A stretch of 64,000 nt of DNA from an uncultured Candidatus Saccharibacteria bacterium (lineage in GTDB: Bacteria; Patescibacteriota; Minisyncoccia; Phycocordibacterales; UBA12088), in the NCBI GenBank assembly GCA_964567265.1, contig CAZMLK010000002.1:138813-202812 (forward strand). The letters run 5' to 3'. Under the pieces are notes generated by a model. The model was not told the DNA's origin. It searched no databases and worked only from the letters and a program-made list of their open reading frames with translations. Made by a program: the position numbers and the translations under genes. Of the stretch, positions 1,609 to 63,570 are shown piece by piece; position 1 is the stretch's first letter; the number at the start of each line of letters is the position of its first letter.

Positions 1609-1622
1609 GCCGACCGACACTC

Positions 1623-18414: not shown

Positions 18415-18939
18415 CTACTTCGCGAACTTCTCGTTGTAAAGCTCGAGGCTCTTCTCGAAGTCCTTCTTTGCGTCAGCGGCGCCGCGGAAGCCCTTTACCT
18501 CCACTTCCTTGTTCTGGAGCTTCTTGTAGGTCGAGAAGAAGTGCTCGATTTCCTTGAGGGTGTGCTTGTTGATGTCGGAAAGGTCCTTCACATCGCTCCA
18601 CCGTGGGTCTTTGACCGGCACGGCGATTATCTTGTTGTCGGATTCGCCGTCATCCACCATGTCCATGACTGCGACTGGCCGGACGCGGACCAGGATGCCG
18701 GGCGCGAGCGGGTAGGTCGTGAGGACGAGCGCGTCGAGCGCATCCTCGTCGTACCAGTACGACTGCGGAATGAAGCCATAATCGAACGGATAGTCCTGGG
18801 AAGTATGCATCGCGCGGTCGAGGGCGATCAAGCCCGTTTCCTTGTCGATCTCGTACTTGTTCTTCGAGCCCTTCGGGATCTCGATGATGACATTCATCTC
18901 GTCAGCCGTTCCCGGCTTCACATCGTGCCAATAGTTCAT
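18415..18939 (-). CDS. ppa: inorganic pyrophosphatase (family I)
   Basis: YPFDYGFIPQSY..DGDALDALVL..., 174 aa. Confidence 0.9.
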   Translation of the reverse strand: MNYWHDVKPGTADEMNVIIEIPKGSKNKYEIDKETGLIALDRAMHTSQDYPFDYGFIPQSYWYDEDALDALVLTTYPLAPGILVRVRPVAVMDMVDDGESDNKIIAVPVKDPRWSDVKDLSDINKHTLKEIEHFFSTYKKLQNKEVEVKGFRGAADAKKDFEKSLELYNEKFAK

Positions 18940-19002
18940 AGTTCTAGTCTTTAAGTGCTTAGTCTGTAGTCTATAACCAGTCCTTTGGAGGAGAAAGGGG
19001 GA

Positions 19003-35419: not shown

Positions 35420-36925
35420 ATGCACACGCCGCCGGGCATACTTGCCCGGCGGCTTTGTATAATGATTCCCATGTTTCTCTATCCACTCATCGGTGGATTC
35501 GCAACAGGCGTCCTCCTCCGGTCCTTCCTCGTGATCGGGCTTCCGGGAGTCGGTTTCGGTGCCGTGATCGCGGCTGCACTCCTCGCGCTCGGTTTCCGCC
35601 GGGGCGAGCGATCGCTCACCCTCGCGGCGATTGTCTGTTTCGGTATCGTGCTCGGCATCTGCCGCTACACGCTTGCAGAGGATGCGCTCCCGTACGCGCT
35701 CGTCGATTCTCTTGGCGAAGGGCGCATGGTCGGGGCGGGCGTCATTGTCGCCGACCCGGATCTCCGCGAAGGGAACACCAAGCTCACCATCGATCTCGAT
35801 ACCATGAACAGCGCGACGACGACGCTCCGCATCCTCGCAACCGTGGATCGTTTCCCTCGCTTTGCATACGGGGATCGTGTGCAGTTGAATGGCATCCTCA
35901 AAAAACCCACAGCATTTTCCGGCGACACGGAGCGCGTCTTCGATTATCCCGCATGGCTCAAGAAAGATGGCATTGTCGCCGTCATGTCATATCCGCGCAT
36001 CGAACGCATCGAGGACGGAGGAGGCAACATCATTTTTCGATACCTGTTCCGCATCAAGCACGCCTTCCTCTCGAATATCGAGGAGCGCATTCCGGAACCG
36101 GAATCGGGACTCCTCGCGGGGCTCTTGGTTGGCTCGAAGCAGTCCTTGGGGAAGGAGCTCCAGGATACGTTCCGCGTCGCGGGTGTCATCCATATCGTCG
36201 TCCTCTCAGGCTACAACGTGACCATTGTCGCGGAAGCCATCATGCGGGCGCTCGCATTCCTGCCGCGCATGCTCTCCTATGCCGCAGGAGGGGTAAGTAT
36301 CATCCTCTTCGCGATCATGGCGGGCGGCTCGGCGACGGTGGTCCGTGCGAGCATCATGGCGGTCCTTGTCCTCATCGCGCGTGCGACGGGACGCACCAAT
36401 GATCTCCTTCGCGCGCTCCTTGTGACCGGCTTCGTGATGCTGATCCACAACCCCTTCATCTTGGCGTTCGATCCCTCGTTCCAACTCTCGTTCCTCGCGA
36501 CCTTCGGCCTCATATTGATCGCCCCGAAGCTTGAGACGCGGGTCACGTGGATTCCGGCAAGATTCGGCATTCGCGAGATTGTCGTCGCGACGCTCTCGAC
36601 GCAGCTCATCGTCTTGCCGCTCCTCCTCTGGATGACCGGTATCTTCTCGGTCGTCGCGCTTCCGGCGAACCTCCTTATCCTCGGCGCGGTGCCGCCCGCG
36701 ATGCTGTTCGGCTTCCTCGCCGGAATGCTCGGGTTCGTGAGTACCTGGCTCGCGCTCCCGTTTGCGCTCATCGCGGATGCGATCCTCCGTTACCAGCTTT
36801 TCGTCGTCCACGTGCTTGCTGGGCTTCCGTTCGCGGCCTTCACGCTCCCTGCCTTTCCGTTCTCAGTATCGCTGGTTGCGTACGTGCTCTTGGCGCTCGT
36901 CTATGTGCGCGTGTCGAAAAAATAA
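35420..36925 (+). CDS. comEC: ComEC/Rec2 DNA-uptake channel protein (N-terminal OB/DUF4131 plus competence membrane domain; no MBL domain in this ORF)
   Basis: AGVIHIVVLSGYNVTIVAEAIM matches the competence-domain signature (HxxxxSGxN), many TM segments; start may be 35420 or 35462. Confidence 0.7.
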   Translation: MHTPPGILARRLCIMIPMFLYPLIGGFATGVLLRSFLVIGLPGVGFGAVIAAALLALGFRRGERSLTLAAIVCFGIVLGICRYTLAEDALPYALVDSLGEGRMVGAGVIVADPDLREGNTKLTIDLDTMNSATTTLRILATVDRFPRFAYGDRVQLNGILKKPTAFSGDTERVFDYPAWLKKDGIVAVMSYPRIERIEDGGGNIIFRYLFRIKHAFLSNIEERIPEPESGLLAGLLVGSKQSLGKELQDTFRVAGVIHIVVLSGYNVTIVAEAIMRALAFLPRMLSYAAGGVSIILFAIMAGGSATVVRASIMAVLVLIARATGRTNDLLRALLVTGFVMLIHNPFILAFDPSFQLSFLATFGLILIAPKLETRVTWIPARFGIREIVVATLSTQLIVLPLLLWMTGIFSVVALPANLLILGAVPPAMLFGFLAGMLGFVSTWLALPFALIADAILRYQLFVVHVLAGLPFAAFTLPAFPFSVSLVAYVLLALVYVRVSKK

Positions 36926-41087: not shown

Positions 41088-41095
41088 TTTCACAA

Positions 41096-41141
41096 AATCA
41101 AAACAAAACCACGCCGGCTCCGCCGGCGGGGTTTTGTTTTG
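41096..41141. terminator. bidirectional terminator aaaacaaaaccacgccggctccgccggcggggttttgtttt after rpsG
   Basis: GC stem with conserved AAAACAAAA/TTTTGTTTT arms. Confidence 0.55.
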
Positions 41142-41154
41142 AGACGCCAATCAA

Positions 41155-41994
41155 TTACTCTGCCTCCGCATGCACCTCGTGGATGCGCTCGACGTCATCA
41201 TGGAGCCGTGAGAGCCGCGGCCCGATCCGATCGACGAGCTCGCTTCCAAATACCACAAAGGGGACGAGATCCTTGCTCTGGAACAGTGTTCCGTTCTCGA
41301 TCACGTACATGCGCTTGTCGCGCATCTCGATCGAGTAGGCGCTCCCGCGATCGATGAGGAATTCCATGATCTCCGGCGTGAGGATTTCGAGTGCCTCGAT
41401 CTCCAGATCTTCAGCGACGTACAGGTTGAACCGCTTCGCGAATCCCGCATCCAGGGTCAGCGATTTGTGATAGGTGTCTGCAAGCGCCTCTCCCTCAAAA
41501 AACCGATTTTCCTCGAGGATGAGATCAGGCAGGGGACCACTGAAATCGAAGCAGCAGACGGTATAGAAATGGCTCTGGCTGTTCTTCCCGCTCCCGGTGG
41601 TGTACTGGAAATGGAACAGCTCGAAGGCAGTCGCCCCGTATTCACCGCTCACCACGTTCGCGATTGCACGGGAGTGACCCTTCTTAAAGAGCATGCTCGC
41701 GTAGGAATCGTCGAGGTCAGAGTACGACGCGTACTCAAAGCCGCACGCGTCGGCAAAACGGCGCATGGACTCTGCCTGGTACCGGCTCGCCCGGTAGCTC
41801 GCGTAGAGGAAGAGGGGAAGGAGGACTCCGTACAGGAACACGTTCAGCGGCTGGCCAAGCCCGAACAGCGAAAGGAAGAGTGCAATGACTCCGAGCACGA
41901 TCCCGATAAGCGCGATCTTCCGGAGTTCTCCGACCACCATGGCACGTGTCATATTCGCGGGGAATGATGCGCCGGGTTTGGGGCCGATTGGCAT
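41155..41994 (-). CDS. hypothetical membrane protein (inserted between rpsG and fusA)
   Basis: Two N-terminal TM helices, then soluble domain (YTTGSGKNSQSHFYTVCCFDFSGPLP); no family recognised. Confidence 0.5.
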   Translation of the reverse strand: MPIGPKPGASFPANMTRAMVVGELRKIALIGIVLGVIALFLSLFGLGQPLNVFLYGVLLPLFLYASYRASRYQAESMRRFADACGFEYASYSDLDDSYASMLFKKGHSRAIANVVSGEYGATAFELFHFQYTTGSGKNSQSHFYTVCCFDFSGPLPDLILEENRFFEGEALADTYHKSLTLDAGFAKRFNLYVAEDLEIEALEILTPEIMEFLIDRGSAYSIEMRDKRMYVIENGTLFQSKDLVPFVVFGSELVDRIGPRLSRLHDDVERIHEVHAEAE

Positions 41995-42040
41995 AGATAG
42001 CGTCAGTATAGGCTAATTGCGGATTTGGTAAATAAAGAAA

Positions 42041-42068
42041 GCGCCGGCCCGAATTTTCGGGCCGGCGC
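42041..42068 (-). terminator. hairpin gcgccggcccgaattttcgggccggcgc plus T-run on the minus strand
   Basis: Located 6 nt downstream of the stop of ORF 42074-42544. Confidence 0.5.
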
Positions 42069-42073
42069 GGCGG

Positions 42074-42544
42074 CTAGCAGGTGCCAGAACAGATGTACAT
42101 GGCCATAAGTCTGTGGGACGTGCGCAAGGCGCGCTCACCGATTGCTGTCCCAGGATAGCGCTCGGAAAGATCCTTATAATACTTTGCCAGCTTCCAGAGC
42201 GACCTTCGCGCTTCTCCAAGGTGAACATAGAGGTCGATCTCAGGGAGACCGGCGTCGCCATTTCTCCCGTGTGGATCCCTCCAGGTTGTCGTTCTCAGGT
42301 GGATCGGTTTCGGCATCCCCCCGCGCCAAAAATAGAAATCGATGCGACGGCGGAGCAGGCTTTGGAGTGGACTTACGATGACCACTGTTTCCGGGGGTGC
42401 CGCCACCTTCGCGAGGAGGTCTTTGCAGAGAGCGATTCCCAAGCCGTCCATTTTGTCTAAGGATGCGGACTGGGCCCTCCATGTAATCAAATCGAGCTTG
42501 GGGCGATGATATCCCCTGAGGGAGGTGGTTGAGTTCGATGACAC
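42074..42544 (-). CDS. hypothetical protein
   Basis: ORF with its own terminator; no motif recognised. Confidence 0.4.
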   Translation of the reverse strand: MSSNSTTSLRGYHRPKLDLITWRAQSASLDKMDGLGIALCKDLLAKVAAPPETVVIVSPLQSLLRRRIDFYFWRGGMPKPIHLRTTTWRDPHGRNGDAGLPEIDLYVHLGEARRSLWKLAKYYKDLSERYPGTAIGERALRTSHRLMAMYICSGTC

Positions 42545-42605
42545 GCATGCGGCCTTCTCCTGATGCTCTGAGGTCTGTGAAGCAATCTCTCACAGCTCCT
42601 CTATA

Positions 42606-42634
42606 TTGTCTATTTCCCGAATTTGATTTATAGT
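42606..42634 (+). promoter_or_regulatory. candidate fusA promoter TTGTCT-N17-TATAGT
   Basis: 65 nt upstream of fusA. Confidence 0.35.
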
Positions 42635-42699
42635 CCTCCTACAAGCGCAAAGCGCCTTTTTGTTTCTTATAAGCCGCCGCCTCATCATTTAGCACCACT

Positions 42700-44853: not shown

Positions 44854-44870
44854 CTCTGAATCAAACAACA

Positions 44871-44907
44871 CAAAGCCGGCGCGAGCTTTGCTCGCGCCGG
44901 CTTTGTT
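44871..44907 (+). terminator. terminator aaagccggcgcgagctttgctcgcgccggcttt + TGTTTT
   Basis: 13-bp GC stem after the fusA stop. Confidence 0.6.
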
Positions 44908-44971
44908 TTCACCCTCCATACAAAAAACACCCCGGAAATTGGCTGAAAGCCAATTTCCGGGGTGCAAAGAC

Positions 44972-45406
44972 TCAAGCAATAATCCGCTTCCGCACCCTCT
45001 CAAAGTAGAGAAGAGAGGCGAGGAAAGTGGCGATGGTGGGGAGCATTGTTGCACCGATTATAAATCCAATCGGATCCTGTATTGCTTCTGTCCGAGTAGC
45101 CACGTTTACCCAGCTCAGGTGAAGCATTATGGATCCCACCGCAGCCACCAGCAAACTTAAGGCGATCTGCAGGAGAAAGGAGTCGCCCTCAACGACATAG
45201 TCAGCGATGACCAATGACGCGAAGACCAAGATCGTCACAATGAGGACTGTCGAGATAGCCCCTCCGCCGAGCTGCCACCCGGGCCGGTCCAAGACCACGG
45301 CCATGGTTTCTGGGGCACTGTTTCTGAGAAAGAGCACCAGCATCGTCAAGCAGGTGAGTATGCTGGCGATTAACGAGCGCACAAAAGCACCTCTCATTTT
45401 CGGCAT
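44972..45406 (-). CDS. hypothetical 4-TM membrane protein (inserted between fusA and tuf)
   Basis: Four hydrophobic helices; no motif recognised. Confidence 0.45.
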   Translation of the reverse strand: MPKMRGAFVRSLIASILTCLTMLVLFLRNSAPETMAVVLDRPGWQLGGGAISTVLIVTILVFASLVIADYVVEGDSFLLQIALSLLVAAVGSIMLHLSWVNVATRTEAIQDPIGFIIGATMLPTIATFLASLLYFERVRKRIIA

Positions 45407-45506
45407 CCTTCCGTCGGTTCAGTACTCGTGCCAGCATGCCGGCGTCTCCGCGACGAATCAAGCCGTCCTCCGGGAGGGTACCGAAGCCTTCACCCCTGCC
45501 CGTTTA

Positions 45507-45535
45507 TTGACGTACCCCTTGCTTTCCGCTATTAT
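45507..45535 (+). promoter_or_regulatory. tuf promoter TTGACG-N17-TATTAT
   Basis: Near-consensus sigma-70 promoter 175 nt upstream of tuf; purine-rich leader. Confidence 0.45.
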
Positions 45536-45709
45536 CTCGCTACCGCAGTTGTTGCGTCCTTTTTTGTCATTGGACCTTGTCATTTGGAGGGCCTTGGGAG
45601 AAAGGGAGGTAGAAAAGGTGGTAGGTGTTCATTATAAATCGCTACCGTCTCGAATTGAGCCCTGGTTCTCGCGCGCTCATACGGGACAGTAGCCAAACAA
45701 GAAAATCAT

Positions 45710-46909
45710 ATGGCAGGTACATTCGATCGCTCGAAGCCCCATGTCAACGTCGGCACCATCGGCCACGTCGACCACGGCAAGACGACCCTCACAGCCGGCA
45801 TCCTCCACGTGCTCCACATGGCGGGGAATGGCTTTGGCGCATCCGAGAAGGGTGTTGACCAGATTGACAACGCGCCTGAAGAAAAGGCACGTGGTATTAC
45901 GATTTCGCTCTCGCACTCTGAGTACGAGACCCCGAACCGTCACTACGCGCACATCGACGCGCCAGGTCACGCTGACTACATCAAGAACATGATCACGGGC
46001 GCAGCCCAGATGGACGGTGCGATCCTCGTGGTCGCAGCGACCGACGGCATGATGCCCCAGACGCGCGAACACGTCCTCCTTGCAAAGCAGGTTGGCGTGC
46101 CTCGCATGATCGTCTTCATCAACAAGGTGGACATGGTCGAAGACCAGGACCTCGTTGACCTCGTCGAAGAGGAAATCCGCGACCTTCTCACGAAGCAGGG
46201 TTTTGATGGCGCAAACGCACCGATCATTCGCGGTTCAGGCCTCAAGGCCCTCGAATCGAAGTCGGTTGACGATCCGTACGCTCAGAAGATCATCGAACTC
46301 GCAAAGGCACTCGATGAATACATCCCGATGCCGGTTCGCGAGACTGAGAAGCCGTTCCTCATGCCGATCGAAGACATCTTCTCGATCGAAGGACGCGGTA
46401 CCGTCGTTACCGGACGCATCGAGCGCGGCCAGGTGAAGGTGGGCGAGGATGTTGAAATCATTGGCCTCCAGCCAACCGCGAAGACGACCATCACGGGTAT
46501 CGAAATGTTCAACAAGCAGCTTGATAGCGGTATGGCAGGCGACAACGCCGGCATCCTCCTCCGCGGAACCAAGAAGGAAGACGTGCACCGCGGACAGGTC
46601 CTCGCAAAGACGGGATCAGTTACGCCGCACACTGAATTCGAGGCAGAAGCATACATCCTCAAGAAGGAGGAAGGAGGCCGCCACACGCCGTTCTTCACCG
46701 GTTACAAGCCGCAGTTCTATGTCCGCACCACGGACGTGACGGGCGACGTGACCCTCCCAGAAGGTGTTGAAATGGTCATGCCAGGCGACACCACGAAGTT
46801 CAAGGTGAAGCTCGTCGCACCAATCGCGCTCGAAGAGCAGACCCGTTTCGCCATCCGCGAGGGCGGCAAGACGGTCGGTGCAGGCGTCGTCACCAAGGTG
46901 ATCGCCTAA
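45710..46909 (+). CDS. tuf: elongation factor Tu
   Basis: [22 protein letters not shown]; 399 aa. Confidence 0.95.
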
Positions 46910-46958: not shown

Positions 46959-47339
46959 ATGGCAACGAAAGAAACTACAGAAGCTCCGAAGCGCGCCAAG
47001 CGCGCGGCGAAAGCTGTCAAAGGAGTTGAAGCCGTCTCCAAGCTCCGCATTCGCGTGCGCGCCTATGAGCACAAGCTCCTCGACGCATCCGTAAAGCAGA
47101 TCATGGACACCGCGCTTCGCTTCGATGCCACCATCGTCGGTCCGATCCCGCTTCCGACGGAAATCAAGAAGTACACGGTGAACCGCGCCGCATTCGTCTA
47201 CAAAGACGCGCGAGAACAATTTGAAATGCGAGTGCACAAGCGCCTCATCGACATCCTGAATCCGTCCGCGAAAGTCATCGAGTCCCTGACCAACCTCACC
47301 CTCCCATCCGGCGTCAACATCGACGTCAAGATGGTTTAG
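46959..47339 (+). CDS. rpsJ: 30S ribosomal protein S10 (with about 25-aa basic N-terminal extension)
   Basis: KLRIRVRAYEHKLLDASVKQIMDTA...RLIDILNPSAKVIESLTNLTLPSGVNIDVKMV. Confidence 0.9.
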   Translation: MATKETTEAPKRAKRAAKAVKGVEAVSKLRIRVRAYEHKLLDASVKQIMDTALRFDATIVGPIPLPTEIKKYTVNRAAFVYKDAREQFEMRVHKRLIDILNPSAKVIESLTNLTLPSGVNIDVKMV

Positions 47340-47384
47340 GTAAAAGGAGTCAAACAAAAAATCCCCTCACGGGGATTTTTTGTT
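47319..47384 (+). repeat. direct repeat, left copy (last 21 nt of rpsJ + stop + terminator)
   Basis: atcgacgtcaagatggtttaggtaaaaggagtcaaacaaaaaatcccctcacggggattttttgtt. Confidence 0.75.
47352..47384 (+). terminator. rpsJ terminator aaacaaaaaatcccc-tcac-ggggattttttgtt
   Basis: Hairpin 13 nt after the rpsJ stop; this is the part duplicated at 48221-48270. Confidence 0.55.
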
Positions 47385-47426
47385 ACACTATGGAGGATTT
47401 CTTTTACATACTAACCGTTCAATCTC

Positions 47427-48131
47427 ATGTCAGAAGGATTCCACGAGGCGAGTGCAGAAAAATCACCCAAGGAGGCATTTACAGAAAAATTCCTTGATCA
47501 GCCTTACGGGAACCTGACAGAAGAACAGCAGGCGATGCTTCGTACGCATGTTGAGGGGCGGGAGGGTCCATGGACAACGGTGCCGAACATATTCGATGTA
47601 ACTTGGGATGATGAAGCGAAACGGATTGTCATCGAGCTGTCTGAGGGAGGAAGCCAAACGTTTATATACGACCCCTTCGTGCCGAAGGTGCCACAAGCTG
47701 CACCACCTGTAGAATCAAGAGGAGACTCCGAGCCGAGTGGCGCAGTAAAAGTCGGGGAAGAACCCGTCTCAGTTGTGACTCAGAGCAACGAGGCGTTGCG
47801 CACCGTGATCCCTGGCGGGGAATGGATCGATTTGTCTGGGAAAAAGATCGTAACCGATCAGGCTGGCTTGTATTCAGGCAAAGAACTGGTCATGAAAACG
47901 GGTGCCGCGAACACGATGAATTTTGTCGGCAAATATAATTTCCACGAGGGAACGATGATCGTTGGAGGGCCCGATGGCTCACTGCACGCGGCTCCGTACT
48001 CGGCAGAGAGAGAGGAGGCGCTCAAAAGCGCAGGGTACAAGCAAGAGTTCGAGCTGGTGCCGAGTTTAACAGGTCATCAAAGGTTCGAAGACGAGGAGAC
48101 CCAGAGGGTATTTGAAGCGCTAAAAAACTAG
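47427..48131 (+). CDS. hypothetical soluble protein (island gene a)
   Basis: 234 aa, no TM, no recognisable motif; lies between the two direct repeats. Confidence 0.5.
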   Translation: MSEGFHEASAEKSPKEAFTEKFLDQPYGNLTEEQQAMLRTHVEGREGPWTTVPNIFDVTWDDEAKRIVIELSEGGSQTFIYDPFVPKVPQAAPPVESRGDSEPSGAVKVGEEPVSVVTQSNEALRTVIPGGEWIDLSGKKIVTDQAGLYSGKELVMKTGAANTMNFVGKYNFHEGTMIVGGPDGSLHAAPYSAEREEALKSAGYKQEFELVPSLTGHQRFEDEETQRVFEALKN

Positions 48132-48191
48132 CTTCACTCTTCCTAGAAGTCAGGCGCTTCACGTGCGGGTGTTCTGTGTCACGGTACCGGA

Positions 48192-48270
48192 ATCGACGTC
48201 AAGATGGTCTAGGCGAAGGAGTCAAACAAAGAATCCCCCCAAGATAATTTCTCTAGGGGATTTTTTGTTT
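48192..48270 (+). repeat. direct repeat, right copy (degenerate rpsJ 3' end ...GIDVKMV* + terminator-like hairpin with enlarged loop)
   Basis: atcgacgtcaagatggtctaggcgaaggagtcaaacaaagaatcccc[ccaagataatttctcta]ggggattttttgtttttt; about 85% identity to the left copy outside the loop insertion. Confidence 0.75.
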
Positions 48271-48401
48271 TTTAAGAAAATAGAGATTCCGCAGAAAGGG
48301 AGGATCGGATCAAATAGAGACATTGACAAATCTATTATATGTGGTATATAATACCGCCAGATAAAGTCCTTCAATCATCGCGCTTCGGACGGAGAAAACC
48401 C

Positions 48402-48866
48402 ATGCGCCTTTCCTTGATTCTGGCCTTCGTACTCGGTCTCCAGAGCGGTTTTGTCGGCAATTCTGCTCACGCAGAGATTGCGACACCCGCCGATCTGCCC
48501 GCAGACTATGCTACCTGGCAAACGTTGCATGAACTCTCTTGTGAACCGCTGTCGATCAAAGTGTATTCGACAATCACGCCGGATGCCGAGATGGAGCTTC
48601 TGACCTACACCCTCGGCAAGAATCTGGTCGCGTACTCGATGTCATCATCCACAAATGCTGGCAAGGTAATCACCGACCATGGCCTCTACAAAGGGGAATG
48701 GAAATCGGTCGATGGCACCGATGCCAATAAGGAGAAATCGGAGCGTCTCGTGAATGCCGCCCTTCTCGATAACGGTGGACAGCCTGCTCTCGTTGCGTTC
48801 GGCCAGTGTAAGCAGGAGCTTGTGCGTAAAATCATAAAGGCTTTCTTTGCACCACTTGGCAGGTAA
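48402..48866 (+). CDS. hypothetical secreted protein (island gene b)
   Basis: Signal peptide MRLSLILAFVLGLQSGFVGNSAHA; start trimmed from ORF-track 48339. Confidence 0.45.
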   Translation: MRLSLILAFVLGLQSGFVGNSAHAEIATPADLPADYATWQTLHELSCEPLSIKVYSTITPDAEMELLTYTLGKNLVAYSMSSSTNAGKVITDHGLYKGEWKSVDGTDANKEKSERLVNAALLDNGGQPALVAFGQCKQELVRKIIKAFFAPLGR

Positions 48867-48912
48867 AACGGAGCCCATTGCATCAGTGTGTGTTCCTCGC
48901 CGTTGATACCCG

Positions 48913-48950
48913 CCCCCAGTCCACGCATGGACTGGGGGCTTCATTTTTTT
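48913..48950 (+). terminator. terminator cccccagtcca-cgc-atggactggggg + TTCATTTTTTT
   Basis: 11-bp stem followed by T7. Confidence 0.55.
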
Positions 48951-49155
48951 GCCTCATGGGGATTTTTTGATTTTTGTTGAAAATAGAAAAAGCCGAAATG
49001 CGCTGTTTCGGCTTTCTTCCTCGTGCATGAGGGTCACGGGTTCGGTGGTTAGTATAGTCTGCCACGAACAGGCATTGGTACAGCTTCTCATTGGACGTAG
49101 CGTTGCTAAAGCAAAAGAAAATCGCTGCGGGCCCGATGGTCCGCAGCGACATCCG

Positions 49156-49803
49156 TCATGCGCTCTGAGGGAATGAGGGCGTCAGAGTGGTGCGACGTCC
49201 CCAGAGATACATACAGAGGAGGATAAGTCCCGAAACGACGAGCAGGATCCCGCCAATTGCAGGGATGAGCCATGCTTGGCGCGTTCCGTCCGAATAGAAA
49301 TCGAACGTGAGATTTTCTCGGTCAACGCGCACTTTCCCCACGTAGGTGAAAAAAGTGTAGTCAGGAAGTGGCACTGCCGCGCTGATGTAGGTCGATAGGC
49401 CGTTCTCCAGCCTGACCAATGCGGTATATTCGACCACCCCATGGAGACCTTTGCCGTCCATGCTCCCGTCGTCCCGCCACCCATTCTGGATTACCACGAA
49501 TGTTGGAACGCTATTCCCCGTTCGTTGCTGAAAATCCTGCATTGGCAATTCTGCCGAAGGCGTACCGTTCTCGAAGGAAAGCACGCTGAGGGTCGTTGAA
49601 TTGTTCGGCTTCCACAACTCGACGTGTATCGGATCAGGCATAGGACTTGCAGTCCATCCAATCAGCATCCATGCACCGAGGGCAAAAATGCCCAGAGGCC
49701 ATCGATAGGTTTTCCACGCACATTTCAGTATCTTTCGAAACGGCTTTCTCTTCGAATTACCAGTCATCTTCCATGCTCCATGGATAGAGTGAACCCACGC
49801 CAC
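49156..49803 (-). CDS. hypothetical membrane protein (island gene c; TM at each end, extracytoplasmic middle)
   Basis: LGIFALGAWMLIGW and AIGGILLVVSGLILLCMYLW helices; hairpin aagccgaaatgcgctgtttcggctt downstream. Confidence 0.45.
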   Translation of the reverse strand: MAWVHSIHGAWKMTGNSKRKPFRKILKCAWKTYRWPLGIFALGAWMLIGWTASPMPDPIHVELWKPNNSTTLSVLSFENGTPSAELPMQDFQQRTGNSVPTFVVIQNGWRDDGSMDGKGLHGVVEYTALVRLENGLSTYISAAVPLPDYTFFTYVGKVRVDRENLTFDFYSDGTRQAWLIPAIGGILLVVSGLILLCMYLWGRRTTLTPSFPQSA

Positions 49804-49915
49804 CGTACCATCCGATCTTCAAAATGTAAATAAATATCTTCGCCCTCTGTGCGTAGACCGAGGGCTCCGTCGTTCCATGGTTCCTGAAAGCCGTTTGGTG
49901 CTATGCTACGGAGTC

Positions 49916-50377
49916 ATGAAGCAGAAGCTGAAAGCGCTATTCAAGTTCGCCTCCCCGGCCATCCTGCTGGTATTCCGGACGTACTACTTCATCTTCCGCC
50001 CGAAGGGGGAGAGCGTGAAGTGCGTGATCCGGAACGGTGGCAACATCCTCCTCATCCGCAATTCGTACGGCGCGAAGTTCTGGACGCTTCCCGGTGGCGG
50101 CGTGAAGTCGAGCGAGACCCTGGAACAGGCGGCCGTCCGCGAAGCACATGAGGAAGTCGGCATCGAGATCCGCGAGCAGGACCTCACCAAGCACGGCAAG
50201 GTGCGCTACCTCCTCGACTTCCGCCGCTCCACGGTCTGGGTGTTCAGCGTCACGGTGCCGTCTCCCGCATTCCACCTTCATGGCGTCGAGATCGAGGAAG
50301 CGAAGTGGTTTCCCGAGAACGCAATCCCCGGCATGCGCTCGCATCTCCTGGAACGTTTCCTCGATTTGGCGAAATAA
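49916..50377 (+). CDS. Nudix hydrolase (island gene d)
   Basis: Nudix box GGGVKSSETLEQAAVREAHEEVGI (Gx5Ex7REUxEExGU); start trimmed to MKQKLK. Confidence 0.75.
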   Translation: MKQKLKALFKFASPAILLVFRTYYFIFRPKGESVKCVIRNGGNILLIRNSYGAKFWTLPGGGVKSSETLEQAAVREAHEEVGIEIREQDLTKHGKVRYLLDFRRSTVWVFSVTVPSPAFHLHGVEIEEAKWFPENAIPGMRSHLLERFLDLAK

Positions 50378-50433
50378 CCGACCGATTTTAGAGTCGGTAT
50401 TGACTATGAAATTAAATTCGTCATGCTGGCACA

Positions 50434-51069
50434 ATGACTAGGTCCACAGAGGAATCACTTGAAATCATCTCAAACCAATTTGTCGTGAAGCGTCGGTTTA
50501 CCACGGGTACATTCAACCTTATATTGGGTGCGGTACTAGGCGCCACTTTGACTTTTTTAGTAGGAGCTATTAATTCTTACATCTCCAACCAAACCTTACG
50601 TCAAGCGGTTGCAAAGAGCATCTACATTGAAATTGAGCATAATAAAATTTTTTTAAATAGCTCTGTATCTGATTTAAACAGCGCAGTTTTAGATTGGAAA
50701 GGCAACAAAGGAAATAAATTAAATATGCAAGTATTCGCCCTGCATAGAGAAGACTTCTACCAAATTTATCTCCAAGATTTAACTCTATTAGATAAAAACA
50801 CTCTAGATGAAACCTACGAATTTTACGGAAGACTTAGGACCATTGATTACCTAACAAAATTAATCACTGATGATTTTGATCTCTATTACAGAAATGAAAA
50901 TCTAATTTCTAGAGCTGATATCTTGTCCCGACTAATGGAATTACAGCAGGATGTGGATGAGGCGCTTCGGAATGCTGACAAAATCCAAAGAGATTTAATT
51001 ACTAAATATGATGTTAACAGTGTTCAGAGTTCCTGTAATCCAACCAATTGTCTAACAAACTCTTGGTAA
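50434..51069 (+). CDS. hypothetical protein with N-terminal TM, very low GC (about 38%) (island gene e)
   Basis: Asn/Ile/Leu/Tyr-rich, AT-rich codons, in strong contrast to the about 60% GC host. Confidence 0.5.
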   Translation: MTRSTEESLEIISNQFVVKRRFTTGTFNLILGAVLGATLTFLVGAINSYISNQTLRQAVAKSIYIEIEHNKIFLNSSVSDLNSAVLDWKGNKGNKLNMQVFALHREDFYQIYLQDLTLLDKNTLDETYEFYGRLRTIDYLTKLITDDFDLYYRNENLISRADILSRLMELQQDVDEALRNADKIQRDLITKYDVNSVQSSCNPTNCLTNSW

Positions 51070-51075
51070 AGAGAG

Positions 51076-51104
51076 TTGCATCCTTTCAGACCTTCCTGTA
51101 TAGT
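51076..51104 (+). promoter_or_regulatory. candidate rplC-operon promoter TTGCAT-N17-TATAGT
   Basis: 145-nt leader follows with nested hairpins (gtccatt...aatggac enclosing gtccc-aata-gggac). Confidence 0.4.
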
Positions 51105-51249
51105 CCATTTACTCTCGTTCTGAGAGATTCTATGTCCCAATAGGGACCAATGGACTGAAATCCGCAAGGGATTCGTCCTTGGCGGTATTTTTAATACCAA
51201 AAACGATCAAAAGACGGTAGAAATCTTCAAAAAACCTATAAAACTCAAC

Positions 51250-51861
51250 GTGAAATTCATCCTCGGCACAAAAGAAGAAATGACGCAGGTCTTCGATGAG
51301 AAGGGCGTCGTCCACGCAGGAACCATCCTCAATGCAGGTCCTTTGACCGTCACCAAGGTCCTCACCAAGGACTCTGACGGATATGAGGCAGTCCAGGTCG
51401 GATACGGCGTCCGCAAGGAAAAGCATGCATCGAAGCCAGTCATGGGCCAGACCAAGGCGTTCGGTATCTTCCGGACCCTCAAGGAGTTCCGCGATGTCGA
51501 GGGCATGACCGCAGGCGACAAGATCGATGTCTCGGTCTTTGCCCCAGGCGACACCATCCAGGTCTCAGCGATCTCGAAGGGTAAGGGCTTCCAGGGCGTC
51601 GTGAAGCGTCATGGTTTCCATGGCGGTCCGCGTTCGCACGGCCAGAAGCACTCCGAGCGCTCCCCGGGTTCTATCGGCGGCGGCGCGCGTGCCGGAGGCC
51701 GTGTCGCGAAGGGCATGAAAATGGGTGGCCGCATGGGTACTGACCGCGTCACGGTCAAGAATCTCAAGGTGCTCGTTGTCGATGCTGCCGCGAACACCAT
51801 CATCGTGTCAGGAGCCGTTCCGGGTCGTCGCGGAACGCTCGTTGAAGTAGTTTCAAAATAA
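51250..51861 (+). CDS. rplC: 50S ribosomal protein L3 (GTG start)
   Basis: MKFILGTKEEMTQVFDEKG... Confidence 0.9.
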   Translation: MKFILGTKEEMTQVFDEKGVVHAGTILNAGPLTVTKVLTKDSDGYEAVQVGYGVRKEKHASKPVMGQTKAFGIFRTLKEFRDVEGMTAGDKIDVSVFAPGDTIQVSAISKGKGFQGVVKRHGFHGGPRSHGQKHSERSPGSIGGGARAGGRVAKGMKMGGRMGTDRVTVKNLKVLVVDAAANTIIVSGAVPGRRGTLVEVVSK

Positions 51862-53841: not shown

Positions 53842-53859
53842 GATCAAGACACGGGAAGA

Positions 53860-53899
53860 AACAAAAGGGCCGCGCGAACGCGCGGCCCTTTTGTTTTTG
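53860..53899 (+). terminator. terminator aaacaaaagggccgcgcgaacgcgcggcccttttgttttt after rplB
   Basis: 13-bp GC stem plus TTTTGTTTTT. Confidence 0.65.
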
Positions 53900-53911
53900 A
53901 TTGGAAATGAT

Positions 53912-53957
53912 CATAAAAAGATGAAGCCGCCGGCGTGCGTACGTGCGCCGGCGGCTC
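53912..53957 (-). terminator. hairpin aagccgccggcg-tgcgtacgtg-cgccggcggctctt with T-run on the minus strand
   Basis: Downstream of minus-strand ORF 53981-54289. Confidence 0.45.
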
Positions 53958-53980
53958 TTCAATTACACCCGGAAGGGGAG

Positions 53981-54289
53981 CTATCTTTTGCCGTTCTCGG
54001 CCGATAGCAGAAACGCCGTCTTGTCGTTGCGGACGGGACGCGCAGTCATCCTGTTGCCTGTAAGGGCTGCTAGGAGACGCGCAATCTGCTGGAGCTGGCC
54101 TTCGTCGGCGATCGTCACATCAGAACGCATTCCATCCACCAAAAGGTAGATTTGATTATTGCCCCTCATGATGAGCAGGGTGCCGCCGGGAGCCGAGACA
54201 ACGTCCCCCTCTTGGGGTGCTGTGGATCCGAGCTCACCATTGCATCTCAGTTCACATGCCACAATTAGTACCTTCCTGCAGTTTTCCAA
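53981..54289 (-). CDS. hypothetical 102-aa protein (inserted between rplB and rpsS)
   Basis: ORF with its own terminator; LLIMRGNNQIYLLVDG; possibly a small alpha/beta regulatory (roadblock-like) fold, uncertain. Confidence 0.45.
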   Translation of the reverse strand: MENCRKVLIVACELRCNGELGSTAPQEGDVVSAPGGTLLIMRGNNQIYLLVDGMRSDVTIADEGQLQQIARLLAALTGNRMTARPVRNDKTAFLLSAENGKR

Positions 54290-54861
54290 GTGACATTAAG
54301 AAGCAATCTGACGATTTGTCAAATTTCTTCTTTAGGGAAGCCCTAAAAAGATACGCCCCCGAGCTGCTCTGCAGCTCGGGGTACGTGTGTTCAGTAGGGG
54401 AGGGTCATTTCTCCCTGACGCGGCATCTGTGGTTCAAGAGGGACGGAGGACTTGAGCTCCTTCAGCTTGCAAACAAGCCTGAACGCCCTACCTATTTCCT
54501 GCGCCATGCGGTACTTCTGCTTGCCCTTCAGCAATATCGGCGTTTCCAAATAGAAGCTTGCTTCTGCCCTGGACCAGAAACAACGTCGTACCCGTTTCCG
54601 GCCAAGTATCCTGATGGCAACCGCAATTGCCACGGCTTCGAAGTAAGGACGCTCGACAACATAAAGCCCTTTGCACCGGATGAGGAGAAACTCGCAATTG
54701 GTCGTGGCATCTCGGCACCCAAAGTCGCGAACGCTCACGCGCTTGGGGGAAAACGCCTTGGTCATCCACTTTCCTCCAGAAAAGGCGGTAAAGAACAGCC
54801 GATATTAAAAACTCTATACGCCAATCTGTCAAGGGTAAGGAAAGAGGAAAGCGCCTTTTGT

Positions 54862-54890
54862 TTGACAGAAACCCCCGTTTTGCGTACTAT
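54862..54890 (+). promoter_or_regulatory. rpsS-operon promoter TTGACA-N17-TACTAT
   Basis: Consensus -35, 17-nt spacer, near-consensus -10, 40 nt upstream of rpsS. Confidence 0.5.
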
Positions 54891-54929
54891 GCTTCCCAAG
54901 CTCTCTCGCGAGCTATTTTCTTTACAGAA

Positions 54930-58660: not shown

Positions 58661-58677
58661 ACCCAGAAATTTTAAAG

Positions 58678-58720
58678 AAACAAAAGGCCCCCGGCGCTTC
58701 GCGCCGGGGGCCTTTTGTTT
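58678..58720 (+). terminator. terminator aaacaaaaggcccccggcgcttcgcgccgggggccttttgttt after rplE
   Basis: 16-bp GC stem, TTTTGTTT tract that runs directly into the next promoter's -35. Confidence 0.65.
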
Positions 58721-58747
58721 GACAAGCCGCCAAATCATCAGTACCAT
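58719..58747 (+). promoter_or_regulatory. promoter TTGACA-N17-TACCAT
   Basis: -35 overlaps the terminator U-tract; drives small ORF 58804-58986. Confidence 0.45.
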
Positions 58748-58803
58748 CGATTTTTGGAACGATAGCCGGGCAATTCCGCCCCTATCCATCCGGAGAGTTT
58801 CAG

Positions 58804-58986
58804 ATGCCGACCAAGGGTTCGCCGATGAAGCGGTTCCGTCCGAATCGGGGCCAGCAAACACCAGGACAGCGTGCTTCAGCGCTCCGAAAACTGCGGCAAC
58901 GAGGGCACAAAGTAGCAACCCGGACCATCGAGGACGCGAGACGCGCGGCATATGGCGCTCGAAAGGCAAATTTGACTGCCGACTGA
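58804..58986 (+). CDS. hypothetical 60-aa basic protein
   Basis: Own promoter and own terminator; Arg/Lys-rich (pI high); no motif. Confidence 0.35.
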   Translation: MPTKGSPMKRFRPNRGQQTPGQRASALRKLRQRGHKVATRTIEDARRAAYGARKANLTAD

Positions 58987-59012
58987 TCATTCACGCTAGG
59001 AGCTGGTAACGT

Positions 59013-59043
59013 ACACCGGCCGAGGTTCCCTCGGCCGGTGTTT
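59013..59043 (+). terminator. terminator acaccggccgagg-gttc-cctcggccggtgt + TTGCTTTT
   Basis: 13-bp stem. Confidence 0.55.
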
Positions 59044-59047
59044 GCTT

Positions 59048-59075
59048 TTGACAATGGCTGAGAAGGTCGTACTAT
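59048..59075 (+). promoter_or_regulatory. promoter TTGACA-N16-TACTAT
   Basis: Drives ORF 59109-59516. Confidence 0.45.
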
Positions 59076-59108
59076 CGTCAGTAGTGTGCTCTGTGCGGAG
59101 GGGATGAG

Positions 59109-59516
59109 ATGACACAGGTAAGCATGTTCGGGTTGCCGACGCTCGCAGTCGAGATCGTGGGTGACCATGTCCACAGCCTTACGCACTACTTGTTCGAGAC
59201 GAGTCGGATGGTCGGGGAGGATGGGGCCGTTTCCCATTACGCAGCAGTCGTGTACGCCAGGCTTCCGTTCGGATTAGATGCGGTGTATCGGAATGAGGGA
59301 GCTGCCAGCGTTCCAACCAGCAGGCTGATCGAATCCGGCTCCCGTGACCCCATTTTGGCGGCGGTACCAGGGCTTTTCAAGTATCAGGCCGATACGAAAG
59401 CATCCTGGGACGCATTTCTCCGGGAAAAGCTCCTGCCGTATGTGCCTGCCGGCAGAATTCTAGTCCTTTGGATCAGTGAAGACGGCGCCACTGAGACCTC
59501 GTTTGTCGTATCGTAG
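59109..59516 (+). CDS. hypothetical 135-aa protein
   Basis: Own promoter and terminator; no motif recognised. Confidence 0.45.
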   Translation: MTQVSMFGLPTLAVEIVGDHVHSLTHYLFETSRMVGEDGAVSHYAAVVYARLPFGLDAVYRNEGAASVPTSRLIESGSRDPILAAVPGLFKYQADTKASWDAFLREKLLPYVPAGRILVLWISEDGATETSFVVS

Positions 59517-59532
59517 CCGCCCCTTGAGACTA

Positions 59533-59570
59533 CGCCGCCGGCCAGGTTTCCTGGCCGGCGGCTCTCTTTT
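59533..59570 (+). terminator. terminator cgccgccggccagg-tttc-ctggccggcggc + TCTCTTTT
   Basis: 13-bp GC stem. Confidence 0.55.
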
Positions 59571-59580
59571 CCGCCTTTGT

Positions 59581-59609
59581 TTGACAATGTATATTCAGGC
59601 TGTTAGTAT
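59581..59609 (+). promoter_or_regulatory. promoter TTGACA-N17-TAGTAT for the rpsN-secY block
   Basis: 57 nt upstream of rpsN. Confidence 0.5.
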
Positions 59610-59666
59610 AGCCGGAAGCTCGTTTAGGGCTTTCTTTTTTAGTTAGGCCTCGAAGAAGCACGCCAC

Positions 59667-61826: not shown

Positions 61827-62276
61827 ATGCAAAGCAACACACTCAAGCGTCATACACCGAACGAGGGATCGCGCCGCGTTGGACGTGGCGGCAAGCGCGG
61901 AAAGACCTCGGGTCGCGGCGGCAAGGGCCAGACCGCGCGCGCAGGCTCACGCCTCCGCCCGGAAATGCGAGATACGATCAAGCGCCTTCCGAAGCTCCGC
62001 GGTCACGGCAAGAACCGTTCGCACACCGTGAAGAGCGAGATGGCGCGCATCGTCCCGGTGAATCTCCGCGTGCTTGAGACCCATGTCTCAGTCGGCGACA
62101 CCGTGAACCCGGCATACCTCGTCCAGAAGGGTATCGTGAATGCAGCCCGCGGCCGCGCGCCGAAGGTGAAGATCCTCGGTGTCGGCGAGCTCACGAAGAA
62201 GATCACGATCTCCGGATGCGCAGTCTCCGAGTCCGCGAAGGCGGCAGTCGAGAAGGCAGGCGGTACGGTACTCTAG
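61827..62276 (+). CDS. rplO: 50S ribosomal protein L15
   Basis: GRGGKRGKTSGRGGKGQTARAG... Confidence 0.92.
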   Translation: MQSNTLKRHTPNEGSRRVGRGGKRGKTSGRGGKGQTARAGSRLRPEMRDTIKRLPKLRGHGKNRSHTVKSEMARIVPVNLRVLETHVSVGDTVNPAYLVQKGIVNAARGRAPKVKILGVGELTKKITISGCAVSESAKAAVEKAGGTVL

Positions 62277-62298
62277 ACCAACACTCCCCAGAAACCCC

Positions 62299-63570
62299 AT
62301 GTCGGTTTTCATACAGAAACTCAAACTCATTTTCTCAGACCGGGTGCTCCGCTCCCGGGTTCTGTTCGTGGTCGCGATGCTCGGCCTTTTCCGCCTCTTG
62401 GCAGCCATCCCAGTTCCAGGCATTGATGCGGCGCAGCTGAAGGCCCTCCTCGAAGGCAACCAGTTCCTCGGCCTCCTCAATATTTTCTCGGGAGGCGGCC
62501 TTTCGACCCTCTCGATCATGATGCTCGGCGTCTCGCCGTACATCACCGCGTCGATCATCATGCAGCTCTCGACCATCATGGTCCCGCAGCTCAAATCGAT
62601 GTACCAGGAAGAAGGGGAAGCGGGCCGCGCGCGCTTTGCGCAGTACACACGCCTCCTCTCGGTCCCGATGGCGCTCCTCCAGGGCTTCGGCTATGCGGTC
62701 CTGCTTTCACGCCAGGGCGTCCTCGTCGGGCTTGATACCTTCGGCTTCGCGACGGTCATCATCGTCATGACTGCCGCTTCCGTCCTCCTCATGTGGATCG
62801 GCGAGCTGATCACTGAATTCGGCATCGGCAACGGCGTTTCCCTCATCATCTTCGCCGGTATCGTCGCGCACCTCCCGACCGTGGCTGGCCAGGCGCTCTT
62901 CAGCTTCGATGTCTCCCAGATACCGCTCTACATCGGCTTCCTCGTCGCCGCACTCCTTGTCGTGACTGCAGTCGTTGTCATTACCGAAGCAGAACGCCCG
63001 ATCCCGATCACCTACGCGAAGAGCGTCCGCGGCGCAAAGAGCTTCGGCGGCTCCTCGACGTACCTGCCGCTCCGCGTGAACCAGGCCGGCGTGATCCCGA
63101 TTATCTTCGCGCTCTCGATCCTCCTCTTCCCGCAGATGATCCTCAACCTCGCGATTCGATTCATGACCGGCCCCGCTGCGGGGTACGCCACGGAGGCGCT
63201 CCAGTTCCTCTCGAATCAGTACGTCTACGGCATCCTCTACTTCATCCTCGTCTTCTTCTTCACGTACTTCTACACCGCCGTCACCTTTGATCCGGATTCC
63301 ATCGCCAAGAACCTCCAGCAGACGGGCGCGTTTGTGCCGGGTGTCCGCCCAGGTGCTCCGACGTCCGAATACATTGCCAACATCCTGACCCGCATCACGC
63401 TCGTCGGCGCGGTCTTCCTCGGACTCATCGCGATCCTCCCGCTCGTCATGCAGGCCATCACCGGCCTCCAGTCGCTCGCTATCGGCGGCACGGCGCTCTT
63501 GATCGCGGTCTCCGTGATCCTCGACCTCGTTCGAAAGATTGACGCGCAAATCTCAATGCGCGAGTATTAG
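62299..63570 (+). CDS. secY: preprotein translocase subunit SecY
   Basis: 10 TM helices, AIPVPGID, GVSPYITASIIMQL motifs; start trimmed to MSVFIQKL. Confidence 0.92.
   Translation: MSVFIQKLKLIFSDRVLRSRVLFVVAMLGLFRLLAAIPVPGIDAAQLKALLEGNQFLGLLNIFSGGGLSTLSIMMLGVSPYITASIIMQLSTIMVPQLKSMYQEEGEAGRARFAQYTRLLSVPMALLQGFGYAVLLSRQGVLVGLDTFGFATVIIVMTAASVLLMWIGELITEFGIGNGVSLIIFAGIVAHLPTVAGQALFSFDVSQIPLYIGFLVAALLVVTAVVVITEAERPIPITYAKSVRGAKSFGGSSTYLPLRVNQAGVIPIIFALSILLFPQMILNLAIRFMTGPAAGYATEALQFLSNQYVYGILYFILVFFFTYFYTAVTFDPDSIAKNLQQTGAFVPGVRPGAPTSEYIANILTRITLVGAVFLGLIAILPLVMQAITGLQSLAIGGTALLIAVSVILDLVRKIDAQISMREY

Follow-up and report, generated by a model that had tools for sequence, protein, structure and literature searches.

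A mosaic of single-gene cassettes between rpsJ and rplC in a Paceibacteria-type bacterium

The genes rpsJ and rplC, which encode ribosomal proteins S10 and L3, are separated by 3,910 bp in a 64-kb stretch of contig CAZMLK010000002.1 ("the window"), compared with 32 bp in Escherichia coli K-12. The window (GC content 0.568) comes from a Paceibacteria-type bacterium of the Candidate Phyla Radiation (CPR) with a very small genome. Five open reading frames (ORFs) occupy the spacer: O1, O2, O3, a Nudix hydrolase gene (O4) and O5 (Table 1). Comparison with near-identical strains shows that these 3.9 kb, far from being a single island, are patched together from single-gene cassettes that such strains have gained or lost. 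In the reading we prefer, to which we give a probability of about 60%, the S10 operon is split after rpsJ and the spacer is a permissive site that holds a mosaic of a long-resident Nudix gene, cassettes and slots whose contents are swapped.

A first-pass annotation, made from the letters of the window, had described the same DNA as one accessory island integrated site-specifically at the 3' end of rpsJ. Its anatomy stands: Pfam identifies S10 and L3 on either side of the five genes, and the block begins after the rpsJ terminator and ends at the rplC promoter and leader, where the homology of one strain, L008, breaks (47384 and 51070). The DNA is also accessory and strain-variable, since near-identical strains differ here and the same five genes are not fixed in the same place in all close relatives. 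The single island did not survive the comparison, because O2, O3 and O5 vary independently and the Nudix gene looks like a host gene passed on vertically.

Strain-variable modules and a repeated rpsJ end

Strains were compared on nine contigs from eight other sequencing runs, each encoding an identical S10 protein. Two of the nine are 100% identical to the window, and the others have 94-98% nucleotide identity in the flanks. The differences among these contigs are blocks with sharp edges and make up four modules that vary independently. L001 lacks 48240-48964, which is the O2 cassette, and has O5 (50380-51096) swapped for 1,129 bp encoding a 338-aa HATPase_c+DUF4325 protein. In both L003 and L004 the O3 slot (49105-49898) is swapped for 233 bp, and the O5 slot (50379-51096) holds 1,574 bp with a 356-aa minus-strand ORF. 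In L008, ~590 bp with an unrelated 130-aa membrane ORF stand in place of the whole of 47385-51069. The O5 slot, which runs from the Nudix stop codon exactly to the -35 box of the rplC promoter, thus has three unrelated occupants in three strains, and no similarity is detectable among these three and the L008 gene. The rplC promoter is kept in all strain variants, with homology restarting at its -35 box. O1 is present in all strains of the set except L008, and the Nudix gene is present in every strain whose contig covers its part of the spacer and absent from L008.

The 3' end of rpsJ and its terminator, stop codon included, are repeated at 48192-48270, directly after O1. The duplication (direct repeats DR1 and DR2) covers ~48-65 nt (blastn E 1.3e-9), with subrepeats that are 95% (22 nt) and 83% identical, and its copies are 0.87 kb apart and bracket only O1 (47385-48191). 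A 21-nt core of the repeat has exactly 2 copies in the 64 kb, where 0 are expected, and there is no copy of the rpsJ end near 51070, the right end of the 3.9-kb block. The site-specific integration proposed in the first-pass annotation has a counterpart in the duplicated 3' end around O1 and none at the right end of the block. A duplication of this sort is the classical mark of insertion at a gene's 3' end. Because O2, O3 and O5 vary independently and the rpsJ-end repeat brackets only O1, the 3.9 kb are not one element. A dispersed repeat or miniature inverted-repeat transposable element was rejected as the source of the repeat module, which occurs only twice in the window.

All O1-bearing strains have an rpsJ terminator stem of CCCC-TCAC-GGGG. 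In L008, which lacks O1, the stem is CCGCC-AGCAA-TGGCGG, and the repeat copy that follows O1 in L001 carries exactly the L008-type terminator. As judged from the sequence, the geometry of DR1 and DR2 fits a left and a right attachment site (attL and attR), with what would be the native terminator now lying behind O1, after a 22-nt fragment of rpsJ. Such an arrangement would be expected from a Campbell-type insertion of a circle with a sequence resembling the rpsJ 3' end. On either side of O2 lies a 29-nt repeat (48256-48284 and 48959-48987, 76% identical), of which L001, lacking O2, has a single copy at that position. With three att-like copies in tandem (DR1, DR2 and DR3), the array DR1-O1-DR2-O2-DR3 resembles a tandem accretion of integrative elements. 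Of the O1 and O2 cassettes, only O2 has a clear promoter and terminator of its own. O3 is convergent with O2.

Composition and selection separate the Nudix gene from its neighbors. O5 (GC 0.36, GC at third codon positions [GC3] 0.34) is the sole strongly AT-rich gene of the spacer, GC3 is 0.56-0.60 in O1-O3, and the Nudix gene has a GC3 of 0.81, like host genes. The drop in GC reported in the first-pass annotation is thus real for O5 and does not extend to the Nudix gene. The ratio of nonsynonymous to synonymous divergence (dN/dS) is 0.03-0.04 for the Nudix gene, whose synonymous divergence (dS) of 0.23-0.25 is similar to that of rplC and rplD. Because of these values and its GC3, and because it is present wherever contigs span its site, the Nudix gene is a resident under strong purifying selection and behaves as if inherited vertically with the host genome. 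For O1-O3, dN/dS is 0.17-0.65, with small substitution counts; these are probably real but weakly constrained genes, likely young or foreign. In L001, dS steps from 0.15-0.23 right of O3 to 0.02-0.05 left of O3, so that homologous recombination tracts end inside the region.

The search for further strains added none: the 22-mer from the rpsJ 3' end had no match in the JGI metagenomes scanned, and exact look-ups of the Tuf and RplC proteins gave no record. For the age of the Nudix-rplC linkage, the metagenomes gave only distant Nudix relatives, none of them near ribosomal genes. As for a clean empty site in close relatives, L008 is without O1, yet carries a different gene there.

Five expanded junctions across Paceibacteria

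At species level the nearest genomes bear labels such as Kaiserbacteria and Paceibacteria, and their ribosomal proteins are only ~70% identical to those of the window. For a census of the class, 74 Paceibacteria species genomes were recovered by S10 (69-86% identity; L010-L089) and 20 consecutive junctions, from rpsL to rplF, were measured, a junction of >300 bp counting as expanded. Expansion is concentrated at five junctions (Table 1); fourteen others exceed 300 bp in 0-1% of species and tuf-rpsJ in 8% (median 27 bp). In the window the same five junctions are expanded and no others of the 20. Adjacency of rpsJ and rplC, which the first-pass annotation had taken as its premise, therefore fails in this class. 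The median distance is 279 bp, with 26 species at <=100 bp, 20 at 100-500 bp, 15 at 500-1,500 bp and 13 at >1,500 bp (maximum 6 kb). The rpsQ-rplN junction is tight in the class (median 10 bp), whereas in E. coli it measures 164 bp and parts the S10 and spc operons.

What fills these junctions is diverse. Those of the window hold ORFs without a Pfam match, the Nudix gene excepted, most of them on the opposite strand, and its other four expanded junctions show no repeat comparable to that of the rpsJ end. Elsewhere the rpsJ-rplC cargo is often of a housekeeping kind and includes glycosyltransferases, Pirin, DUF3141, DUF559, EF-Ts and PheT domains, a tRNA and single cases of a DDE transposase, a reverse transcriptase with bAvd and a Nudix/NrtR protein. 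None of this cargo is related to O1-O5, and most fillings do not look like any one kind of mobile element. A terminator-like hairpin lies <=90 nt 3' of rpsJ in 26 of 38 split junctions, as against 9 of 35 tight ones.

Duplications of a gene 3' end around a short insert were found at 4 of 124 expanded junctions, compared with 0 in matched upstream controls (Table 1). In L077 the bracketed HicA toxin gene (Pfam E 4.4e-9) stands directly after fusA with a putative antitoxin ORF upstream. In L079 (4692-5600) the 16-nt repeat flanks a small membrane-protein cassette after rpsJ, and behind the cassette comes a DUF559 gene between inverted repeats of ~45 nt, an example, independent of the window, of insertions stacked at rpsJ-rplC. 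The duplication in L035 may be either the scar of a recent insertion or a repeat produced in assembly. A perfect 30-nt rpsJ duplication in L048 (2493-2592) was discarded, as it spans 100 Ns and is a scaffolding artefact in a public metagenome-assembled genome.

Several further observations concern the same junctions. L017 has three tandem terminator-like modules 3' of rpsJ (5486-5760), with a common flank 'cattcggac' and different stems, and in the same interval a 39-nt repeat of the sequence just past the rpsJ stop codon. A paralogous family of ~360-aa proteins without Pfam domains fills the rpsJ-rplC gap in three species (L017 5972-11097, four tandem copies; L047 3529-5762, two; L033 3610-4188), and a minus-strand tRNA gene lies within the 6-kb gap of L086 (14354-14426). 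In the rplB-rpsS gap of the window, the minus-strand ORFs 53981-54289 and 54391-54765 are hypervariable (53898-54280 and 54396-54762) between ribosomal genes that are 95-98% identical in DNA across strains: the 124-aa protein is only 31.6% identical to its positional counterpart in L003, and unalignable sequence stands in place of the 102-aa ORF in L001 and L003.

In cyanobacteria, plastids and archaea, S10 follows EF-Tu and is apart from L3, the so-called str-operon arrangement. The window and its relatives share with it the attachment of rpsJ to tuf and the break between rpsJ and rplC. They differ from it in that rplC still lies locally, at 0-6 kb, what fills the spacer varies, and extra breaks occur at rplB-rpsS and rplE-rpsN. 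A literature search of incomplete coverage turned up no account of ribosomal clusters being interrupted in CPR bacteria, nor of an rplC leader there, which is weak evidence of novelty.

Table 1. Features of the window, its five expanded junctions and corresponding features in relatives. Positions are those of the window unless a relative is named; percentages refer to the 74 species genomes. TM, transmembrane.
Feature	Position	Strand	Description
tuf (EF-Tu)	45710-46909	+	ORF; ends 49 bp 5' of rpsJ
rpsJ (ribosomal protein S10)	46959-47339	+	Pfam PF00338, E 2.8e-31
DR1	47319-47384	+	last 22 nt of rpsJ and intrinsic terminator; left repeat, attL-like
rpsJ terminator hairpin	47356-47381		arms 47356-47366 and 47371-47381, loop TCAC; U-run to 47384
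O1	47427-48131	+	234-aa soluble orphan, no TM segment
DR2	48192-48284	+	second rpsJ 3' end (22 nt, 95% identical) and terminator arms; attR-like; its 3' part (48256-48284) doubles as left repeat of O2
O2 promoter	48323-48352	+	TTGACA-18-TATAAT, 12/12 consensus matches
O2	48402-48866	+	154-aa orphan, signal-peptide-like N-terminus (putatively secreted)
O2 terminator	48912-48939		just 5' of DR3
DR3	48947-48987	+	partial: terminator 3' half and GAAAATAGA; right repeat of O2
O3 terminator	49017-48987	-	
O3	49156-49803	-	membrane orphan; 161-215 aa depending on start codon
Nudix hydrolase (O4)	49916-50377	+	Pfam PF00293, E 5.9e-19; longest ORF from 49877
O5	50434-51069	+	211-aa orphan, one TM segment, GC 0.36
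rplC promoter	51076-51104	+	TTGCAT-17-TATAGT
rplC leader	51105-51249	+	~145 nt; two-helix RNA motif 51127-51198
rplC (L3)	51250-51861	+	Pfam PF00297, E 5.7e-13; heads rplC-rplD-rplW-rplB block
rpsG-fusA junction	41088-42699		1,612 bp; 57% >300 bp
fusA-tuf junction	44854-45709		856 bp; 88% >300 bp
rpsJ-rplC junction	47340-51249		3,910 bp; 49% >300 bp, 24% >1 kb
rplB-rpsS junction	53842-54929		1,088 bp; 66% >300 bp
rplE-rpsN junction	58661-59666		1,006 bp; 50% >300 bp
L079, rpsJ 3'-end duplication			16 nt
L017, fusA 3'-end duplication	1292-1717		30 nt, around ~400-bp insert without sizeable ORF
L077, fusA 3'-end duplication	6135-7210		perfect 20 nt, bracketing HicA toxin cassette
L035, rplE 3'-end duplication	18820-19052		76 nt, 100% identical, 157 bp downstream in rplE-rpsN gap
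L024, leader motif	12304-12387		example
L080, leader motif	15087-15165		example
L086, leader motif	16281-16357		example
L082, leader motif	12142-12228		example

Other features of the window lie outside the spacer. The gene rplO (L15, 61817-62260) directly follows rpsE, and rpmD (L30/uL30) is gone from between uS5 and uL15; loss of uL30 is a trait reported for CPR bacteria (PMC9297842). The longest SecY ORF (62179-63570) overlaps the end of rplO, and the true SecY start is probably further downstream. A second patch of atypical composition, at 13986-15553 beside the trigger factor gene, consists of two adjoining minus-strand ORFs of 212 and 286 aa (GC 0.44-0.47, GC3 0.43-0.49) without a Pfam match.

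Possible routes of entry and alternative explanations

With a terminator after rpsJ, a 3.9-kb spacer and a separate promoter and leader for rplC, the locus is not a canonical E. coli-type S10 operon. In the mosaic reading the operon would be cut one gene later than in E. coli, so that tuf-rpsJ ends at an intrinsic terminator and rplC-rplD-rplW-rplB is transcribed separately, from a sigma-70-type promoter of its own and through a structured leader or attenuator. The spacer from terminator to promoter would then be free of the constraint of ribosomal expression and could serve as a permissive landing pad, as in about half of the sampled Paceibacteria. Because the spacer is transcriptionally insulated between the terminator and the rplC promoter, insertions are plausibly harmless. 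O1, and probably O2, would have entered as circular DNA that recombined at the rpsJ 3' end and terminator in the Campbell manner, duplicating the target. Two routes are possible for this entry: site-specific recombination by an enzyme encoded elsewhere, or recombination at short homology. The contents of the O3 and O5 slots would most likely have been exchanged when DNA that had been taken up recombined homologously with the highly conserved flanking genes. The window carries a ComEC competence gene (35420-36925).

The cassettes were compared with known classes of mobile DNA. Cis-mobilizable elements (CIMEs) are integrase-less derivatives of integrative elements, and tandem accretions of such elements are also known. 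Chromosomal hotspots, or islets, are places of gene turnover between conserved core genes, a general concept of pangenomics, and the ribosomal-protein supercluster is usually the most syntenic region of bacterial genomes. Like CIMEs, the cassettes contain no integrase. As in hotspots, unrelated genes occupy the same core-gene interval in near-identical strains, sharp breakpoints coincide with the boundaries of genes or signals, and the cargo consists of orphans in DNA of atypical composition; unlike the usual hotspot, this one lies inside the ribosomal-protein supercluster and is one of five precise junctions common to a whole class. Streptococcal integrative and conjugative or mobilizable elements (ICEs and IMEs) target the 3' ends of rplL, rpsI and rpmG (PMC4701971; see also PMC5704250), and where a tyrosine-integrase element has inserted into the 3' end of a ribosomal-protein gene, the direct repeats that it leaves measure 2-60 bp (PMC4701971). 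The O1 insert is like these in lying directly after the stop codon of an intact ribosomal-protein gene, between direct repeats that contain the gene 3' end and are within the 2-60 bp range. It is unlike them in that the units are single genes of 0.7-0.9 kb, compared with elements of 5-100 kb, the 64-kb window has no integrase, relaxase or origin of transfer (oriT), the host belongs to the CPR, and the signature is confined to O1 and perhaps O2. In the literature searched, which was covered incompletely, no report of rpsJ as an integration target was found.

No integrase, recombinase or transposase was found among the five spacer ORFs (Pfam, NCBIfam and PADLOC) or ~70 other ORFs of the window (Pfam), in agreement with the first-pass annotation, which had seen no integrase. 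The att arrangement of an integrative element is found for O1 (47319-47384 and 48192-48270) and not for the 3.9-kb block. The locus lacks the features of a Tn7-like element, having no transposase domains and a duplication of 48-65 nt instead of 5 bp, and those of an integron, there being no intI in the window scans and no shared motif at the O3 and O5 ends, while the repeats are ordinary terminators. An attC-like motif common to the ends of the O3 and O5 cassettes was looked for and not seen. We place the locus in a known category, that of hotspots where DNA integrates and turns over behind a housekeeping gene's 3' end; what is unusual is the target rpsJ, the single-gene units without an integrase, the CPR host and the position inside the ribosomal supercluster.

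Several alternatives to the mosaic were weighed. A single 3.9-kb mobile island, site-specific at the rpsJ 3' end and with its integrase lost or encoded elsewhere, agrees with the absence of the whole of 47385-51069 from L008, with breakpoints exactly at terminator and promoter, with the existence of a duplicated rpsJ 3' end and with the atypical composition of O1-O3 and O5. We nevertheless consider it very unlikely, since only two copies of the rpsJ end exist and the second lies 0.87 kb from the first instead of at the right end, strains differ in O2, O3 and O5 independently, the Nudix gene is host-like with strong purifying selection and host-like dS, L008 is not an empty site but carries a different gene, and the scanned ORFs of the window include no integrase. 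An old, fixed and immobile gene block of the lineage, in which strain differences reflect deletions and fast divergence of weakly constrained genes, is less improbable than this but still unlikely. O1 and the Nudix gene are missing only from L008, the split of the junction is found across the class, and some genes of the rplB-rpsS gap are diverged homologues (31.6% identity) and not replacements. Deletion and divergence cannot, however, produce a duplicated rpsJ end with attL/attR-like terminator variants; moreover, the three O5-slot occupants have no detectable similarity and differ in strand and size, O5 has a GC of 0.36 in a 0.57 genome, and the only relatives of O1 are in unrelated, mobile-element-like contexts.

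The repeat after each cassette also invites comparison with an integron-like array, in which a dedicated recombinase encoded elsewhere would capture cassettes of promoter, ORF and hairpin at the rpsJ terminator site. The order DR1-O1-DR2-O2-DR3, with a hairpin-containing repeat behind each cassette, the promoter and terminator of O2 and the similar mini-cassettes behind fusA, rpsJ and rplE in other species are in its favor. It is highly doubtful all the same, as the scanned ORFs of the window include no intI-like gene or other recombinase, the O3 and O5 cassettes have no common end motif, the hairpin is an ordinary 7-11-bp terminator and not an attC-like imperfect palindrome, and the repeat module is nowhere else in the 64 kb. 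Foreign DNA joined by chimeric assembly or binning is hardly credible: the window does come from a metagenome-derived genome, and the relative L048 does show a scaffolding duplication of its rpsJ end across Ns, but assemblies of at least 8 sequencing runs independently gave the same junctions, identical or nearly so, the window has no Ns, and its repeat copies have diverged (88-96% identity) and are not identical k-mer repeats. We also considered a bolder version of the mosaic, which we regard as improbable: a trans-acting Paceibacteria system that would insert self-contained single-gene cassettes right behind the stop codon and terminator of the conserved translation genes rpsJ, fusA and rplE, duplicating 16-65 nt of the gene's 3' end and building arrays at the five junctions, together with a new leader RNA of the rplC-rplB unit. 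If true, it would work as an integron-like gene-capture platform without intI or attC, and each strain would hold its own tandem arrays of orphan, toxin-antitoxin and surface genes at the five fixed docking junctions.

The mosaic reading has points against it as well. The absence of a recombinase from the scanned ORFs of the window leaves the enzyme hypothetical, and the O1 unit, at 0.87 kb, is far below the size of any autonomous integrative element. The O2 repeat is short, only 76% identical and overlaps a T-rich terminator, and may be convergent; the O3 and O5 slots have neither flanking repeats nor a shared end motif, so that their mechanism is read from the pattern of exchange. No strain of the set has O2-O5 without O1, so that the events may have come in more than one order, and no sampled genome falls between the near-identical strains and the ~70%-identical species, which hides the intermediate history. 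In the relatives, 3'-end duplications are rare enough that most expansions may have another origin. Finally, no search assigned a function to any cargo gene besides the Nudix fold.

The cargo searches themselves gave the following. The Nudix gene belongs to its family with 68.8 bits against PF00293 (cut-off 21.1), and no NCBIfam equivalog reaches its cut-off, so that no substrate is assigned. The PADLOC defence models returned only a generic Nudix-type match for O4 (PDC-S07, E 4e-12) and nothing for O1, O2, O3, O5 or the alternative slot occupants, and NCBIfam likewise gave no match for the rest of the cargo. An exhaustive HMMER search placed the C-terminal ~110 aa of O1 in a small uncharacterised family; O1 has no Pfam, PADLOC or NCBIfam match. 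The only relatives detected for O1 are proteins of ~120 aa; the gene for one of these neighbors a DUF3768 gene within a run of small ORFs, a setting reminiscent of a mobile element. O1 and O5 match only themselves among 5.8 billion protein clusters. AlphaFold models of O1 and O5 were too poor to use (mean predicted confidence, pLDDT, 56 and 35), and that of O1 had no fold match at E<0.4. A viral origin was rejected, with no relatives of O1, O5 or the L001 ATPase in IMG/VR. Because the cargo consists of small secreted or membrane orphans and one alternative occupant of the O5 slot, that of L001, is a GHKL-type ATPase, strain-specific surface or conflict functions are our most likely guess, which is speculation.

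A candidate rplC leader RNA and what the split may mean

Many Paceibacteria have a TTGCAT-17-TAnAGT promoter and a recognisable leader 5' of rplC, whatever lies upstream. The leader consists of a hairpin closed by GU..AC, the motif CCAAUGG and, 3' of these, another helix or terminator accompanied by a U-run; in the window a terminator-like hairpin at 51165-51181, followed by a U-run, lies within the motif. In an alignment of 11 diverse leaders, 87% of the pairs are standard, compared with 65% in shuffles, and not one of 500 shuffled alignments equals the real one in this. The covariation score is 0.62, compared with 0.25 in shuffles and <=0.23 with the partners slid by 1-3 columns, and 10 of the 13 pairs show compensatory changes. 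A covariance model found 20 matches in 1.2 Mb, of which 19 are directly 5' of rplC, some of them outside the training loci. Rfam 15 gave nothing at 51100-51250 even at E<=5, and at seven relatives' loci nothing reached the gathering score. A longer leader variant, 'AGACCUAYGU...GRACCAAUGGGCACAAA...', occurs in L010, L017, L033, L035, L037, L038, L047, L051, L060, L068 and L084.

The leader of the E. coli S10 operon is an L4-responsive attenuator (PMC3616713). The Paceibacteria leader is like it in being a structured 5' leader with a terminator-like hairpin before the first gene of the L4-encoding unit, and unlike it in standing before rplC and not rpsJ and in having no sequence or structure match to Rfam. 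On the strength of the comparative analysis, it is a candidate autoregulatory leader or attenuator of the rplC-rplB unit and a concrete candidate for a new ribosomal-protein autoregulatory RNA, and it bears on the regulation of ribosomal operons in CPR bacteria.

The ribosomal supercluster is a textbook case of frozen gene order and the backbone of metagenomic phylogenies built from 16 syntenic ribosomal proteins. Here, in a large CPR class, five of its junctions are open to insertion, and one turns over between strains that are ~95% identical in DNA. This bears on the assembly and binning of ribosomal marker blocks and shows where to seek strain-specific genes, possibly for host interaction or conflict, in very small genomes. 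That the rpsJ end is duplicated in an att-like manner where no integrase is near suggests an undescribed route of mobilisation in CPR bacteria.

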